A stretch of 64,000 bases of DNA from Candidatus Dormiibacterota bacterium (GTDB taxonomy: Bacteria; Chloroflexota; Dormibacteria; Aeolococcales; Aeolococcaceae), in assembly GCA_963833055.1 (NCBI GenBank), contig CAWHWM010000005.1, forward strand, positions 9,321 through 73,320, given 5' to 3'. Shown here one piece after another: positions 3,908 to 28,652 of this stretch. Position 1 is the stretch's first letter, and the number at the start of each line of letters is the position of its first letter. Below the pieces are notes generated by a model, which worked only from the letters and a program-made list of their open reading frames with translations, was not told the DNA's origin and did no database searches. Made by a program: the position numbers and the translations under genes.

Positions 3908-5135
3908 CTACTCCGCAGCCGCCGCGACGCGAATCGCACGTGCGAACGCGGCGGAGGTCTCTTCGAGATCCGCGGCTGTGTGCACCGACGAGCAGAACGC
4001 GCTTGTGTTGAGGATGTCGACACCCTCGGCGCGCATGGCGTTCGCAATTCGCCCATGGGCTCGCGGATCCGACAGGAAGATATGCAGGATGCTCGCAAGC
4101 CGGCGGATGGTCCCGTCGATTCCGGCCGTGGCGAGCGCGGCGGTCCAGTCGGCGGCGAGGCTCACGGCATACGCCTCAGCGGTGCGCTGCGGCACGCCGT
4201 CGGCAACCAGCCGCAGCGTGGTGACCCCCGAGCTTGCGCTGAGCGGATTGGCGTTGAACGTTCCCGGATGGGGGATCGTCGTGGCGAGCAATTCGAGGAG
4301 ATCCGAGCGGCCGGCAACCGCTCCGCCAGGGAGCCCACCGGCCATCACCTTGCCGAGGACGCTGACGTCCGGCGTGATCCCGAGCACCGCCTGCATGCCA
4401 CCAGGGGACACGCGGAACCCCGTGACCACCTCATCGAAGACGAGCAGCGTGCCGGTCGCCGTGCACGCGGCTCGTGCGGCGGCGATGAAGGCGGGATCGA
4501 GCGGCAGCTGCCCGTAGTGCGCGCCTGACGCTTCCATGATCACGGCTGCCACATCGCCGCGAGCGAGGGCCGCCTGCAGTGCGGCGGGATCGTCGGTCCG
4601 TACGACCTCCGTGAGCTCGCCGAGGACTTCAGGAACGCCGATCGGCGTCCTGGTGGTGCCGTCCGCGTCCAGGTATGGGCTCACCACGTCGGACCATCCG
4701 TGAAAGTGGTCCTGGAGCTTGACGATGCGATCCCGGCCGGTCGCGGCCCGCGCAACGCGGAGCGCGAGCATCACCGCCTCGGTGCCCGACGCGGTGAACC
4801 TGACCTTCTCGGCCGACGGGATCAGCGACGTGATCAGCTCCGCCCACTCGACCTCGAGCGGATGCGCGGCGCCGTAGTGGGTGCCGTGCGACACCTGCTC
4901 GCGAACGGCCTCGACCACGGCGGGATACGCGTGCCCGAGCAGGAGGGCGCCGTGTCCCATCGTGTAATCGATGAGCTCGGTGCCGTCGATGAGCCACTTC
5001 CTCGATCCGCTCGAGCGAGCGACGTAGATGCGCGGGTCATAGGTCCGCGAGGCTGTGCGTGGCGCCTCCCGGGAGCACCCGGCGTGCGCGCTCCGCCAGG
5101 TCGGCGTGGGCACGCGTGTGCACGGCCTCGGTCAC
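3908..5135 (-). CDS. glutamate-1-semialdehyde 2,1-aminomutase-like class-III aminotransferase (paralog; apparent N-terminal frameshift near 5045)
   Basis: 401-aa ORF 3908-5113 with PLP fold-type I motifs (FDEVVTGFRV, LGKVMAGGLP); conserved N-terminus (LAERARRVLPGGATHSL) lies in another frame upstream, so one indel is inferred. Confidence 0.7.
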
Positions 5136-24192: not shown

Positions 24193-24507
24193 TCAGCGCC
24201 AGTCCACCTCGGTGACCTGACCATCCAGGATCTCGATCGTGATGGTGGCGCAGGGACCTTCGGCCCAGAGCGTCCAGCGGCCCTCGCTGAGCGAGGGGAA
24301 GAGGGCCACCGGCACCGTCTCACCGTGCAGAGAACGCTCGTGCACGCCTGTGTGCGTCCGCGCCTCGGGCTGATCCTCGGGGCTGACCTCGGGCTCGGTG
24401 TGGAGGAGCGCTGCCGGCACGATCACCACCAGCGCTCCTGTTCCCCCACCGATGTCGAGGACCGCCGGCCCGCTTGGAGCGGGGCCGGCGAACTCGATCG
24501 TGTTCAA
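24193..24507 (-). CDS. hypothetical protein (104 aa) co-transcribed with DUF4331 gene
   Basis: ATG overlaps the DUF4331 stop (ATGA at 24504-24507); no domain recognised. Confidence 0.5.
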   Translation of the reverse strand: MNTIEFAGPAPSGPAVLDIGGGTGALVVIVPAALLHTEPEVSPEDQPEARTHTGVHERSLHGETVPVALFPSLSEGRWTLWAEGPCATITIEILDGQVTEVDWR

Positions 24508-25883
24508 CTCGGGGTGTCGAATCCGTTGAGCGGCACGCCCAGGTACGGGAAGTGATCGATGTACCGGTTGTTGGCCGGTACAGCGCCACTGCTGAACTGA
24601 GCGGCTGAGAAGTCGCTGACGACGCCTGCGGCGCCGTCGGGCGTGTAGGACTTGTCCACGAGCGGGATCGTGACGCCGGCGATGGCGCGGATCTCGATGG
24701 TTGCGACGTCGTCGAACACGCGGCGGCCGTTCGGGAACCCTGCGAGGTCACCGCCGAGGATGCCGTTGATGTTCGGCTTCGATGCCGGCGGAATCGCCAT
24801 GTTCAGACGGAGCAGGTCGGCCGGGGTCGACCCGGTCGAGTTCTGGAAGCCCGCAACGATTCCCGAGGGGATTCCCGTCAGCAGGATGGCCTCGAGGTCG
24901 GCACGCGCCGGCTTGTAGGCGGCGAGGTTCGGGAACACACCGGGGTAGAGGACCGGGAGGAGTCCCTGGAGCTCGGGATGGGCGTAGTTCGCGACGAACT
25001 GCGCATCGTTCTGCGGCTCGGTGGAGTTCCAGAAGTCCTTGGTCCCGATGGGGATGACCACCTCATTGATGAGCGGCATGCCGAGGCGCGACACCTGGAC
25101 CCACGGACCGACGTCCATGGTGCGGCCACCCTTGTCCAGCACGGTCGACTTGCGGCGGCTGGCGGTGGTGTACACGCCGATGACCGAGTCCGCGCTGGTC
25201 GGGTCGGTGGGCATCTCGCCGTTCTTGGTGAGGTTCGTCTTGGGGATCTGGATGGCGATCGTGTGGACGTTGAGGTGCTTCGTGGAATCGACGCCACCGA
25301 CGGCCGGCAGCGGGATCAGGTGCAGGTTCTGGAACGGACGCAGCGCGCCGAGGTCGAAGATCGATCCGAGGTCGACGTAGAAGCCTTCACGGCGCTGGCC
25401 GGCGAACACCCATCCACCGTCGAGCGCATGCACCGCGGAACGTGCGAGCGCGCCGTAGTTCGGGGTCGAGCGCACGCCGACATTCACCGGCGGGCACGCG
25501 AGCTTGCTCGCAAGCACTTCGGACTTGCCGTGCTTGATCTTGGTGACCGAGTAGAACTGACGGACGTTCCAGCTCGAGCTGGTCAGGCTGGTGATCGGCC
25601 CGGTGTTGTACAGGAACGTGTTCGGGTCGGTGTACTCGGTGGTGAACGCGAACTGATAGGTGATCGCGTCGGCGACGCTGCCGCCGTTGGTGACCGTGAT
25701 CTCGTAGAGCACGTCGTCGCCGAAGTTGTAGAAGTTCGGTCCGCCGTCCGGTCCCTCGAGCGGGATGTAGTTGGCGATCAGCGTCACCGTGTCGGGATGA
25801 TCCGGGCTGGTGAACGCGTAAAGGTCAGTGCTGTCTGCAACCGGGTCCTGCGAGATCCCGGGTGCTTCACGATGCGAAGACAT
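24504..25883 (-). CDS. DUF4331-family protein
   Basis: 459 aa starting MSSHREAPGISQDPVADSTDLYAF, an N-terminal signature I recall for DUF4331; beta-rich, no obvious signal peptide. Confidence 0.75.
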   Translation of the reverse strand: MSSHREAPGISQDPVADSTDLYAFTSPDHPDTVTLIANYIPLEGPDGGPNFYNFGDDVLYEITVTNGGSVADAITYQFAFTTEYTDPNTFLYNTGPITSLTSSSWNVRQFYSVTKIKHGKSEVLASKLACPPVNVGVRSTPNYGALARSAVHALDGGWVFAGQRREGFYVDLGSIFDLGALRPFQNLHLIPLPAVGGVDSTKHLNVHTIAIQIPKTNLTKNGEMPTDPTSADSVIGVYTTASRRKSTVLDKGGRTMDVGPWVQVSRLGMPLINEVVIPIGTKDFWNSTEPQNDAQFVANYAHPELQGLLPVLYPGVFPNLAAYKPARADLEAILLTGIPSGIVAGFQNSTGSTPADLLRLNMAIPPASKPNINGILGGDLAGFPNGRRVFDDVATIEIRAIAGVTIPLVDKSYTPDGAAGVVSDFSAAQFSSGAVPANNRYIDHFPYLGVPLNGFDTPS

Positions 25884-25926
25884 GTGTACCCCTCGTGAGG
25901 ATGTGAATGCTGTTGTGGTGGGCGGT

Positions 25927-26196
25927 TCAGCGCGCTGCGCGCTGGAGACGCCGGATGAGCTGCGGGTCCTTGGTCACGACCTCGCGATGGCCGACCATCA
26001 CGGCGATCTCGCCGGTCGCCGCGTCGCGCACGTACGCGGTCATGGGCGCGCTCGACACTGGACCGTCACTCGCATCGGCGACGTTCTGCGCCGCCTCGAC
26101 GAGCGTGCTCGGCCCGGCGAGAAGCCCCATCGCCGCCACTCCGCCCGCTGCCCCCACTGTCGTGGACAGAAACGTCCGCCGTGTCACCTTGGCCAT
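25927..26196 (-). CDS. small protein with twin-arginine (Tat) signal peptide (89 aa)
   Basis: MAKVTRRTFLSTTVGAAGGVAAMGLLAGPSTLVEA: RRxFL motif, h-region, AxA cleavage-site-like. Confidence 0.6.
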   Translation of the reverse strand: MAKVTRRTFLSTTVGAAGGVAAMGLLAGPSTLVEAAQNVADASDGPVSSAPMTAYVRDAATGEIAVMVGHREVVTKDPQLIRRLQRAAR

Positions 26197-26335: not shown

Positions 26336-27010
26336 TCAGGTCCAGGCGGGGACGAGCACCTCGACGCTGTCAGCGGTGACACGCGTCTGGATCGCAGGCA
26401 GAGGATTCAGGCGATAGTCGCCGGGATTCGCCGCGCCCGTGAGGTTGAAGCTCATGGGATGGCACGGGCAGACGAGCTTGCTCTGGGACGCCTCGGGAAC
26501 CAGCGTGCAGCCCTGATGCGTGCAGACCGCGCTCAGCGCCTGGACCTTGTCGTCGAGCGTGAAGACGACGCCCTGCAGGCCGCCGGCGGAGAACTGCTTG
26601 ATCCTGCCCGGCTTGACGTCATCGAGGGTCGCGACGGCCACCCACGTGCTGATGTACGGCTGGATCGTCCCGCCGCCGCTGGCCGGTGCCGTGAGCGCCT
26701 CGCGCAGCCCTTCAGCACCGATCCCGGCGGCGACGGACGCCGCGACAGTCGCCAGCCCACCGACCAGGAAACGCCTGCGGCGGATGCCCGCCTCCGTCCA
26801 CCCGGGCTCGTGGCCCTGTGCGTCGCGTAGCTGACGCGCGAGGCCGTCGACGAATGCCGGCGACGGGGTCGACCCACCTGGGTGCGCCGCGCGCAGCCGC
26901 GTGGCAACCTGCATCGCCGCGGAATCGTCACCTGCTGGGATGCGCGGCGGCCGGCGGTTGGCGATGAGCGCCTTGACGAAGCGCGCGAGGCGGCGGTCAG
27001 CTTTCGACAT
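26336..27010 (-). CDS. Rieske [2Fe-2S] domain protein with cytoplasmic N-terminal region and internal RRxFL-TM anchor (candidate anti-sigma factor)
   Basis: ATG 27010 lies 14 nt inside the ECF sigma gene; Rieske boxes CTHQGC and CPCHPMSF; RRRFLVGGLATVAASVAAG around residue 85. Confidence 0.75.
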   Translation of the reverse strand: MSKADRRLARFVKALIANRRPPRIPAGDDSAAMQVATRLRAAHPGGSTPSPAFVDGLARQLRDAQGHEPGWTEAGIRRRRFLVGGLATVAASVAAGIGAEGLREALTAPASGGGTIQPYISTWVAVATLDDVKPGRIKQFSAGGLQGVVFTLDDKVQALSAVCTHQGCTLVPEASQSKLVCPCHPMSFNLTGAANPGDYRLNPLPAIQTRVTADSVEVLVPAWT

Positions 27011-27527
27011 CACGAACTCCCGTGGCGGCCGCTCGGCGCAGGGCGCGGAGCTGCAGCACCTTGGCGTTGGCAACGCTCACGCCCATCGCCGCCGCGGTCT
27101 CCCGTATCGAGTAGCCGCGCAGAAACCGGAACTCGAGGACACTCCGGTAGTTGTCCGGGAGCCCGTCGAGGATGGGGCTGACGTCCACGTCGTGCTCGCG
27201 CTCCGGGGGCTGGGTGGCATCGCGCTGATCATCGAACTCCATCAGGACCGTCCCGTGGCGCTGCCGCCACACGTCGGCGAGCACGCTGCGAGCGGTGGTC
27301 CGCAGGTATGCGCGGGTCTCCGCGGCCGAGACGTCGGAGCGGAGCCTCGGGAGTGCCCGGAGGAAGGTGGTCGAGGTCACGTCCTCGGCGTCCGCTGTAT
27401 TGCCGGTTCGCGAGTAGACATACCGATAGAGAGGAGCCACATGCTCCTGGTAGACGGATTCCCAGTCGTTCGAGCGATCTGGGCCGCCAACCACGCGAAG
27501 CGGGGGCGGCGATTCAGGAACGGCCAC
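26997..27527 (-). CDS. ECF-type RNA polymerase sigma-70 factor
   Basis: Region 2 (VAPLYRYVYSRTGNTADAEDVTSTTFLRA) and region 4 HTH (YRSVLEFRFLRGYSIRETAAAMGVSVANAKVLQLRALRR). Confidence 0.85.
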   Translation of the reverse strand: MAVPESPPPLRVVGGPDRSNDWESVYQEHVAPLYRYVYSRTGNTADAEDVTSTTFLRALPRLRSDVSAAETRAYLRTTARSVLADVWRQRHGTVLMEFDDQRDATQPPEREHDVDVSPILDGLPDNYRSVLEFRFLRGYSIRETAAAMGVSVANAKVLQLRALRRAAATGVRDVES

Positions 27528-27602
27528 TGTCGTTCATGTTCTACGGATCGGGGTTACGCAACCGGCCGTTCGGGGCATGATTGGCACAGAGGGTTTTTCG
27601 CC

Positions 27603-28652
27603 ATGAGTTCCGACGCTTCCCACGACCGTCTCATCGGGACAGTCTCGCTGGTCCTGGATCGGATGGTGCACGTGCGCCTGACCGCCGTCGGCATCACTCG
27701 CCCGGATTCGATCGACCGCACTCCGGCCGATCCCGTCGAGTTCTGGGAGCAGAGCCGGGTCCACGATCCACATCCCATCCATGTCAACCGCGAGTGGGAA
27801 TCGCTCGGCGGCCCACGCTGGCGTGAGCTCGAACTCGAAGGTGACAGCGTCGGCCCGGGGCACCACTGGGGCAGCCGGCACCTGGTCGCGACGGCGCACG
27901 TCCGCCGCGAGCCGGGACCTGCTCCGTTCGTGCTGCTGCTCCACGGCTACGCGGTTCCGCAGACCACCTACGACCGATGGCTCGCCCGGCAGATGCGCAT
28001 GCGGGGCGCCCACACCGCCAGGCTCGACCTGCCGTACCACCTGCGCCGGACGCTGCCACATCAGCGGAGCGGCGACGGGTACTTCAGCCTCGACCCGGCT
28101 CACATCCGCGCGGTGGTGCGCCAGACCGTCGAGGACGCCGCCGCCATCGTCGCGTGGGCTCGCGCGGAGGTCAGCCCGTACGTGACCGTCGTCGGCGTGA
28201 GCCTCGGCGGGCTCATCGCCACCCAGCTGGCGGCGCACCTCGAGCTCGACCGCGTCATCGCCGTGGCCCCATTCTGCGATCCCGCGACGACGCTATCGCA
28301 GCGACCACCCACCCCGTCGCTGCGCCACCTCGGCATGATCGGCGAGCACACCGTCTCCTGGGGTCCCGACCGGGCCAGCGCGGGTGCGTTCCTGCAGGCG
28401 ACGCTTGCCCCGCTCGTGGCGCGCAACCTGACGCCGCGAACGCCGGGCAGCCGGATCACGCTGGTGCGCGCCATGCAGGACCTGGTGGTCGGCCCGGACC
28501 CCGTCACGCAGCTCGCCGACGCGTGGAACACGGACCTGTGGACCTACCCGCACGGCCACATGAACGTGATGAGCGCCAGTGGGATCGCCCGGCGGATCGC
28601 CGACCTTGCGACCAGGATGCACGACGAGCCCGGCCTGTCCGTCGCGGTATGA
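27603..28652 (+). CDS. alpha/beta-fold hydrolase
   Basis: ATG 27603 (upstream part of the 583-aa ORF is an R-rich artefact); nucleophile elbow GVSLGG; HG oxyanion-like LLLHGY. Confidence 0.7.
   Translation: MSSDASHDRLIGTVSLVLDRMVHVRLTAVGITRPDSIDRTPADPVEFWEQSRVHDPHPIHVNREWESLGGPRWRELELEGDSVGPGHHWGSRHLVATAHVRREPGPAPFVLLLHGYAVPQTTYDRWLARQMRMRGAHTARLDLPYHLRRTLPHQRSGDGYFSLDPAHIRAVVRQTVEDAAAIVAWARAEVSPYVTVVGVSLGGLIATQLAAHLELDRVIAVAPFCDPATTLSQRPPTPSLRHLGMIGEHTVSWGPDRASAGAFLQATLAPLVARNLTPRTPGSRITLVRAMQDLVVGPDPVTQLADAWNTDLWTYPHGHMNVMSASGIARRIADLATRMHDEPGLSVAV

Follow-up and report, generated by a model that had tools for sequence, protein, structure and literature searches.

Does a Rieske protein whose gene overlaps that of a sigma factor of the extracytoplasmic function (ECF) type act as the anti-sigma factor of its neighbour? 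This question is raised by the gene pair at positions 26336 to 27527 of a 64,000-nucleotide stretch of DNA from a Candidatus Dormiibacterota bacterium, which as a whole is referred to here as the window. A preliminary description of this DNA had put forward the Rieske [2Fe-2S] protein as a candidate redox-sensing anti-sigma factor. The analysis presented here indicates that the locus as a whole is probably best explained as an autoregulated sigma/anti-sigma pair of the ECF127 type. The candidacy of the Rieske protein was supported by its conserved linkage to the sigma gene and by a portable N-terminal module, and on such comparisons of sequence its role as an anti-sigma factor appears quite likely. 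The two genes are the following:

26997..27527, minus strand: ECF sigma gene, GTG start, 176 amino acids (aa), with Sigma70_r2 and Sigma70_r4_2
26336..27010, minus strand: candidate anti-sigma (Rieske) gene, ATG at 27010, 224 aa plus a stop codon

The product of the sigma gene matched the Pfam families Sigma70_r2 (E 1.4e-10) and Sigma70_r4_2 (E 9.7e-9), also exceeded the NCBIfam cutoff for sigma70-ECF, and consists only of a sigma-2 and a sigma-4 region, without extensions. The open reading frame (ORF) of the Rieske gene extends in full over 26336..27073 on the minus strand, and the ATG at 27010 was chosen as its start since the beginning MSKADRRL... is conserved in all homologues. As the stop codon TGA of the sigma gene is at 26997-26999, the two genes overlap by 14 nucleotides (nt), and the ORF coordinates confirmed the earlier statement that the Rieske gene lies directly downstream of, and overlaps, the ECF sigma gene. 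Translational coupling of this kind would cause the sigma factor and its partner to be made together.

Homologues were gathered from a protein database and from one genome per species, and every fetched locus was searched for relatives of the window sigma. A related ECF sigma gene, with its end at or shortly past the start of the Rieske gene, was found directly upstream and on the same strand in all 16 loci that matched the N-terminal region of the Rieske protein (L001-L016); an adjacent related sigma gene on the same strand was absent from all 67 loci that matched the Rieske domain only. The 16 loci belong to Dormibacterota, Chloroflexota, Amycolatopsis and other Actinomycetes, and the genes that flank the pair differ among them. 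The start and stop codons overlap by 4 nt in L001-L003 and L007, and by 14 nt, like in the window, in L004 and L005. The sigma genes paired with homologous Rieske genes encode proteins 41-95% identical to the window sigma, and sigma and partner diverge together in sequence, with identities that fall in parallel (95/94, 91/83, 68/51, 55/45 and ~44/37%). The nearest relatives of the Rieske protein (83-94% identity) were found in metagenome-assembled genomes of Candidatus Dormibacterota, and further members in Chloroflexota. The pairing that the preliminary description had proposed to look for in other genomes therefore occurs across Dormibacterota, Chloroflexota and Actinomycetota, and the 17 fetched homologues that retain the N-terminal region, far from being consistently unlinked to sigma genes, are all linked to one. 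Weakly similar sigma genes were also seen near the Rieske-only match in L025, L042, L075 and L083; they lie on the opposite strand or kilobases away, are not accompanied by the motif described below, and were judged unrelated.

A short sequence in front of the sigma gene is shared by most of these loci:

27542..27557, minus strand: bipartite promoter-like motif GTAACCCCGATCCGTA (GTAAC-N7-SGTA), with 14 nt between its end and the sigma GTG downstream

The motif is situated in a divergent intergenic region of 66 nt. It is the only match to GTAAC-N7-SGTA in the window, where 0.03 matches are expected, and it stays the only one when one mismatch is allowed. Of the 16 related loci, 14 have the motif upstream of their sigma gene (13 with the exact N7 spacing, and L014 with N6), whereas none of the 67 Rieske-only loci has it. 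Its first part reads GTAACCC (27557-27551, minus strand) and matches the -35 box given for ECF127 in the ECF Hub, according to which the -10 region of this group is non-conserved.

The geometry of the motif was examined in 22 aligned copies. No further conserved positions were found from 45 nt upstream to 40 nt downstream of it, and the aligned copies showed no conserved -35 box upstream of GTAAC. We know of no ECF sigma factor for which two recognition boxes such as GTAAC and SGTA have been described at a distance of ~8 bp. The promoters of the related group ECF40 have the form GTAAC-N16-18-CGAT. A corresponding -10 box 16-18 nt after GTAAC was considered and rejected, as the 22 aligned instances have no conserved positions there; CGA triplets do occur at variable distances of 15-20 nt after GTAAC and were read as chance. 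In several genes, the distance from SGTA to a start codon fixed by protein conservation is only 7-14 nt. Were SGTA the -10 box, it would stand one helical turn closer to GTAAC than usual. Were GTAAC instead a normal -35 box, there would be no explanation for the invariant SGTA, and transcription would begin downstream of several start codons.

Outside the window, the same motif precedes other genes of the related loci. Additional copies were found before a cupredoxin lipoprotein gene in L003 and L009, which in L009 is followed by the gene of a metallophosphoesterase with a signal for twin-arginine translocation (Tat), and before Lipoprotein_15 genes in L007, L008, L012 and L016. The motif also precedes a divergent gene of the PAP2 superfamily with a Tat signal in L009, L010 and L015. 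In these three Amycolatopsis loci, at about 4210-4373, two motif copies stand back to back (GGTTAC..GTAACC), one directed toward the sigma operon and the other toward the PAP2 gene (406-423 aa).

The original ECF127 group is reportedly due to Huang et al. 2015. The group is defined in the supplement of Casas-Pastor et al. 2021 (ECF Hub), with 2092 of its 2093 members from Actinobacteria. There, the Rieske/Tat protein encoded at position +1 is proposed as the anti-sigma factor and is described as similar to the putative ECF121 anti-sigma factors (ECF Hub); a calcineurin-like phosphoesterase and/or an acyltransferase (subgroup s1) belongs to the genetic context. The idea of a sigma factor with a Rieske anti-sigma factor is thus already catalogued bioinformatically, and in a 2022 review the group stands under "unknown mechanism" because experimental data were lacking. 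At the level of sequence, the locus in the window bears the hallmarks of ECF127: a minimal ECF sigma factor, a Rieske protein with a twin-arginine motif at +1, and the GTAACCC box upstream of the sigma gene. The class was assigned here by these hallmarks instead of by the ECF127 hidden Markov model (HMM), whose trusted cutoff in the ECF Hub is 163.7 bits. Amycolatopsis sigma factors whose genes are accompanied by this +1 gene, the motif and a phosphoesterase share 43-44% identity with the window sigma (E about 1e-33 to 1e-35), and the phosphoesterase is present in the related loci L003 and L009.

The window pair differs from the catalogued group in several respects. It has no phosphoesterase or acyltransferase context, a second conserved box, SGTA, follows 7 nt after GTAAC, and the partner protein looks membrane-anchored. 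It also comes from a Dormibacterota-like genome, outside the Actinobacteria from which the group was reported, and this occurrence extends the taxonomic range of ECF127 rather than excluding membership.

The part of the Rieske protein that is expected to contact the sigma factor is its N-terminal region:

26813..27010, minus strand: N-terminal domain, residues 1-66, three predicted helices, no Cys; putative sigma-binding module

In an AlphaFold2 model of the Rieske protein built on 46 homologues, helices were predicted at residues 3-16, 30-42 and 51-65, with a predicted local distance difference test score (pLDDT) of 59-75. The conserved pattern of the domain is RRLxRFVxALLxDRRPPR...AM..AA.LRAAHPG...P.FVD.LARRLR. 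As residues 1-162 of the protein contain no Cys at all, the zinc-binding signature HxxxCxxC is indeed absent, just as had been noticed before.

Among 1.84 billion representative proteins, the N-terminal profile matched 473 protein clusters. Of the listed hits of at least 180 aa, 37 of 61 contained Rieske boxes, and most of the others among those 61 resemble frameshifted or truncated Rieske-type sequences. At least seven members (P0244 at locus L084, P0172, P0169, P0176, P0183, P0192 and P0229) combine the same N-terminal domain, Arg-rich stretch and hydrophobic segment with an unrelated C-terminal domain of ~100 residues, which has a conserved GxPSWVFMxV...C.L...G and no Pfam match. Between the gene of P0244 and the ECF sigma gene upstream of it there is again an overlap of 4 nt, and the sigma factor encoded there is 46% identical to that of the window. 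Judged by these sequences, it is the N-terminal module and not the Rieske domain that travels with this sigma clade, and this would be expected of a sigma-binding module. The alternative architecture probably represents another sensor domain on the same anti-sigma chassis.

These results bear on the alternative that the Rieske protein is no anti-sigma factor at all. It would then be the first member of the regulon, a Tat-exported electron carrier that has a long N-region and works together with the cupredoxin, and the sigma factor would be controlled otherwise. Rieske proteins and cupredoxins are both extracytoplasmic electron carriers, and cupredoxin genes do follow in L003 and L009; however, they are absent from the window and from most loci. 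An electron carrier of this kind also fits poorly with an N-terminal domain that is conserved, is found only beside this sigma clade and, when fused to a non-Rieske domain, is still encoded by a gene overlapping that of the sigma factor. Nor was any other anti-sigma candidate adjacent in L001-L003, the loci with called genes. We consider this explanation very improbable.

Among solved structures, the closest relative of the window sigma is sigma-BldN of Streptomyces venezuelae (6DXO_A, E 2.3e-14), whose partner is RsbN and which belongs to ECF121, a group that we take to be the BldN group. RsbN is a three-helix, single-pass anti-sigma factor that founded class III; it has a cytoplasmic part of 117 residues and an extracytoplasmic domain of 272 residues and is said to be restricted to Streptomyces (PMC6101532). 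In domains of the RsbN type, helix 3 is clamped between sigma-2 and sigma-4, and helices 1-2 rest on sigma-4. The window partner resembles it as far as the model and predictions go, with three helices joined by linkers and followed by a predicted membrane segment and an extracytoplasmic domain. In contrast, the extracytoplasmic domain of RsbN is of unknown fold and not a Rieske domain, RsbN has no Tat motif, and it shows no detectable sequence match to the window protein. The N-terminal profile did not match 6DXO in a search of all PDB chains with E values up to 10. Since the profile searches of PDB and Pfam gave no match to RsbN, homology to a solved anti-sigma domain is not claimed. Two matches at the level of chance, to viral VP3 (E 0.24) and, for one member, to VMAP-M0 (E 6e-4), were dismissed.

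The C-terminal half of the protein was assigned as follows:

26339..26659, minus strand: Rieske [2Fe-2S] domain, residues 118-224, PF00355 and fold match
26522-26524, 26516-26518, 26468-26470 and 26459-26461, minus strand: cluster ligands C163, H165, C181 and H184, respectively

The Pfam family PF00355 matched residues 122-194 with an E value of 2.3e-13. The box CTHQGC contains C163, H165 and C168, the box CPCH contains C181, C183 and H184, and C168 and C183 are the cysteines of the disulfide pair. In the AlphaFold2 model, the pLDDT exceeds 90 from residue 111 on, and the best Foldseek matches were to 8hn2_A, a Rieske domain from Chlorobaculum (E 3e-9), and to 5cxm_A, the plasma-membrane PetC3 of Synechocystis (TM 0.82). 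The family profile matched the b6f-type Rieske protein 8hn2_A with E 2.4e-17. The top ranks in NCBIfam were held by the Rieske subunits of b6f, bc1 and arsenite oxidase, all far below the family cutoffs. The domain is of the bc1/b6f type, with all four cluster ligands and the disulfide pair.

The ligands were surveyed in 253 family representatives of 195-260 aa, of which the 229 with recognisable cluster-binding boxes were scored. The CxH..C/CxCH set was kept in 223 of these. Four of the exceptions have Asp at the position of the first His (CTDQGC in P0077, P0079, P0080 and P0161, a subclade that includes the L001 protein), and in two the second His is absent, being replaced by Arg (CPCR) or Gly (CPCG) in the single members P0115 and P0193. 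Meanwhile, among Dormibacterota relatives 82-85% identical to the window protein, the disulfide cysteines are replaced together (CTHQGV...CPAH) or one is replaced alone (CPAH), with all ligands kept; such variants are P0014, P0018, P0036 and P0038 and P0010, P0012, P0016 and P0041. Because the ligands are kept while the disulfide cysteines are lost in some close relatives, the cluster appears to be the constrained feature that is under selection. The paired loss of the equivalents of C168 and C183 is consistent with a disulfide between them.

The window protein is comparable to the Rieske proteins that are inserted by Tat (PetA, PetC, QcrA, PetC3 of Synechocystis, 5cxm, and AioB) in its fold, its CTHxGC...CPCH boxes, the disulfide pair and the preceding twin-arginine motif. 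It differs from them in that no gene of a cytochrome b or another catalytic partner is adjacent, that an additional conserved domain of ~75 residues precedes the Tat motif, and that the linkage to an ECF sigma gene is strict. On these three grounds, the roles of a respiratory Rieske subunit and of a dioxygenase ferredoxin were rejected. No cytochrome b partner was adjacent either in the window, where the neighbours are the sigma gene and the genes of a small Tat-signal protein and a DUF4331 protein, or in L001-L003.

The two domains are connected by a segment that would determine on which side of the membrane the cluster resides:

26711..26782, minus strand: twin-arginine motif (R77-R80, F81, L82) plus a hydrophobic stretch (residues 81-99); probably serves as a Tat signal-anchor or transmembrane segment

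The sequence of residues 76-82 is IRRRRFL, and after it come ~19 hydrophobic residues with a hand-calculated Kyte-Doolittle mean of ~1.85. The order of an N-terminal region, an RRRFL and hydrophobic segment, and a Rieske motif (CTHQGC...CPCH), given in the preliminary description, was read in the sequence as well, and that description of the protein proved correct throughout. R78, R79 and L82 are invariant among the 46 homologues, and RRx followed by two hydrophobic residues was found in this region in 229 of the 229 scored family members. A Tat substrate would carry S/T-R-R-x-F-L-K and, after it, a moderately hydrophobic region; a motif and a region of this kind are present and conserved here, with only E 0.08-0.12 from Tat-signal HMMs on the window protein. 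The AlphaFold2 model is of low confidence over residues 67-110, which include both the twin-arginine motif and the hydrophobic segment. The relative P0193 scored E 0.007 with a Tat HMM, and the alignment of the family profile with 8r3a_B, the chain of the Tat-exported AioB, starts at position 75 and takes in the twin-arginine region. We find it likely from these features that the Rieske protein is anchored by Tat with its N-terminus inside and its C-terminus outside. Compared with the "soluble" partners of the ECF Hub, its probable anchoring in the membrane is new.

It was also considered that RRRFL is no export signal and that the protein is a soluble cytoplasmic anti-sigma factor, the cluster of which senses cytoplasmic redox state or iron like RsmA and RshA. 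Cytoplasmic [2Fe-2S] anti-sigma factors do exist, the ECF Hub scores the ECF127 partners as soluble with 0 transmembrane helices and finds a Tat signal in only 10-40% of them, and the Tat-signal HMMs stayed below threshold on the window segment (E 0.08-0.12). A soluble protein would not be expected, however, to keep R78, R79 and L82 invariant and to have the hydrophobic stretch in every family member, and one would not expect its Rieske domain to belong to the bc1/b6f/AioB type and to show the pair of disulfide cysteines that is usual in exported Rieske proteins. The relatives with the alternative C-terminal domain share the Arg-rich stretch and the hydrophobic segment at the same place, and one orthologue was named 'Tat pathway signal sequence' by NCBI. 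A soluble cytoplasmic location is therefore regarded as improbable.

The precedents for a cluster of this kind on an anti-sigma factor are RsmA, the partner of sigma M in Streptomyces coelicolor, and RshA, the partner of SigH in Mycobacterium tuberculosis, both cytoplasmic (PMC3427169). In these proteins and in RsrA, the zinc-binding partner of sigma R, a redox-active metal centre on the anti-sigma factor controls the release of the sigma factor (PMC3427169), and the window protein would resemble them in this respect. Their Cys-ligated centre lies inside the cytoplasmic sigma-binding domain itself, whereas the window protein has its cluster, of the His2Cys2 Rieske type, in a domain of its own that is probably exported, and its putative sigma-binding region is free of Cys. 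As for the remark in the preliminary description that a 2Fe-2S cluster would be an unusual sensory input, the cluster as such has cytoplasmic precedents in RsmA and RshA.

Taken together with the anti-sigma reading, these features suggest the following scheme. The partner would be a single-pass anti-sigma factor whose residues 1-66 stay in the cytoplasm and sequester the sigma factor; the mode of sequestration would probably be that of the class III domain of RsbN. RRRRFL and the hydrophobic stretch would serve as an internal, uncleaved Tat signal-anchor, and the folded, cluster-loaded bc-type Rieske domain (residues 118-224) would act outside the membrane as the sensor. A change in the cluster (it might be lost, damaged or shifted in redox state, for example under the action of oxidants or copper or when iron is lacking) would destabilise the anti-sigma factor and free the sigma factor. 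The latter would then transcribe from GTAAC-N7-SGTA promoters, which in the window means its own operon; in the relatives, it would also drive genes of secreted proteins, namely the cupredoxin lipoprotein, the Tat metallophosphoesterase, the Tat PAP2 protein and Lipoprotein_15. Any specific signal, be it the redox state, damage to the cluster by copper or oxidants, or the sufficiency of Fe-S clusters or iron, is speculative. The full proposal, in which the extracytoplasmic cluster of a Tat-inserted anti-sigma factor is the direct sensor and releases a sigma factor for secreted metalloproteins that recognises boxes ~8 bp apart, is tentative and less probable than not.

The cluster could act at an earlier stage instead. 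The Tat pathway exports folded, cofactor-loaded proteins, and the Rieske domain stands directly behind the conserved twin-arginine motif. Only a cluster-assembled Rieske protein might pass Tat proofreading and anchor the sigma factor, the apo-protein being degraded and the sigma factor freed. The trigger would then be a failure of Fe-S assembly (a shortage of iron or sulfur, or oxidative or copper damage in the cytoplasm), and the pair would report Fe-S or iron status and not extracytoplasmic redox. This would agree with cluster ligands that are more strictly conserved than the disulfide pair, and the cupredoxin encoded behind the motif, a copper protein, could replace an iron carrier. However, no suf/isc or iron-uptake genes were found behind the motif in the loci examined with their 10-kb flanks, and we hold this version to be unlikely.

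Several observations weigh against an autoregulated pair with an exported Rieske anti-sigma factor. The N-terminal model is of moderate confidence, and the N-terminal profile had no significant match in Pfam and PDB, RsbN included. As some family members lack a His ligand (CxD, CxCR, CxCG), the cluster is not universally required. The spacing of the motif is odd for an ECF promoter, with 7-8 nt from AAC to CGT compared with 16-18 in ECF40, and the motif scan with up to one mismatch predicted no target in the window besides the operon itself. To these are added the sub-threshold Tat scores of the window segment and the soluble assignment of ECF127 partners in the ECF Hub, both given above.

Relative to the catalogued ECF127 group, the new elements are the pairing outside Actinobacteria, the strictly conserved, short-spaced GTAAC-N7-SGTA, and the presence of the same motif before cupredoxin, Lipoprotein_15 and PAP2 genes. 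The pairing is old enough to be shared by Dormibacterota, Chloroflexota and Actinomycetota. Its putative sigma-binding part, a small three-helix module that is portable, has escaped public annotation. The Amycolatopsis orthologues are annotated as 'ubiquinol-cytochrome c reductase iron-sulfur subunit', 'QcrA and Rieske domain-containing protein' or 'Rieske (2Fe-2S) protein', and none of these public names refers to an anti-sigma factor; the reading proposed here would correct a systematic mis-annotation of the orthologues as QcrA-like proteins or ubiquinol-cytochrome c reductase subunits. It also offers an exported Fe-S cluster as the hypothetical input of an anti-sigma factor. The sharply defined motif predicts members of the regulon, and genetically tractable species of Amycolatopsis, such as Amycolatopsis mediterranei, carry the same system.

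The surroundings of the pair in the window were also inspected. Downstream of the Rieske gene, after a gap of 139 nt, three genes follow at 24193-26196 on the minus strand. The product of the first is a protein of 89 aa that bears a Tat signal (TIGR01409, E 3.5e-4). A DUF4331 protein of 459 aa is encoded by the second, which lies 43 nt beyond the first, and the third is an ORF of 104 aa. As the Pfam match of the DUF4331 protein begins at residue 2, this protein has no signal peptide of its own. The trio might represent Tat 'hitch-hiker' export of the kind known from MelC1/MelC2; it is shared only with the close relatives L004 and L005, at 64-94% aa identity. Neither a motif nor a terminator lies between the trio and the sigma operon: no motif was found for the genes of the small Tat-signal protein and the DUF4331 protein even with one mismatch, and the minus strand showed no intrinsic terminator.

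On the other side, a divergent gene at 27594-28652 on the plus strand starts 66 nt from the start of the sigma gene, and its product resembles an alpha/beta hydrolase by eye. It is followed by genes for a GNAT acetyltransferase, a glutamate racemase and a polyprenyl synthase, as judged by eye and by synteny with the Pfam-annotated locus L001. The gene order in L001 is the same, except that two additional genes, one of them encoding a DUF5995 protein, are present beside the sigma gene.

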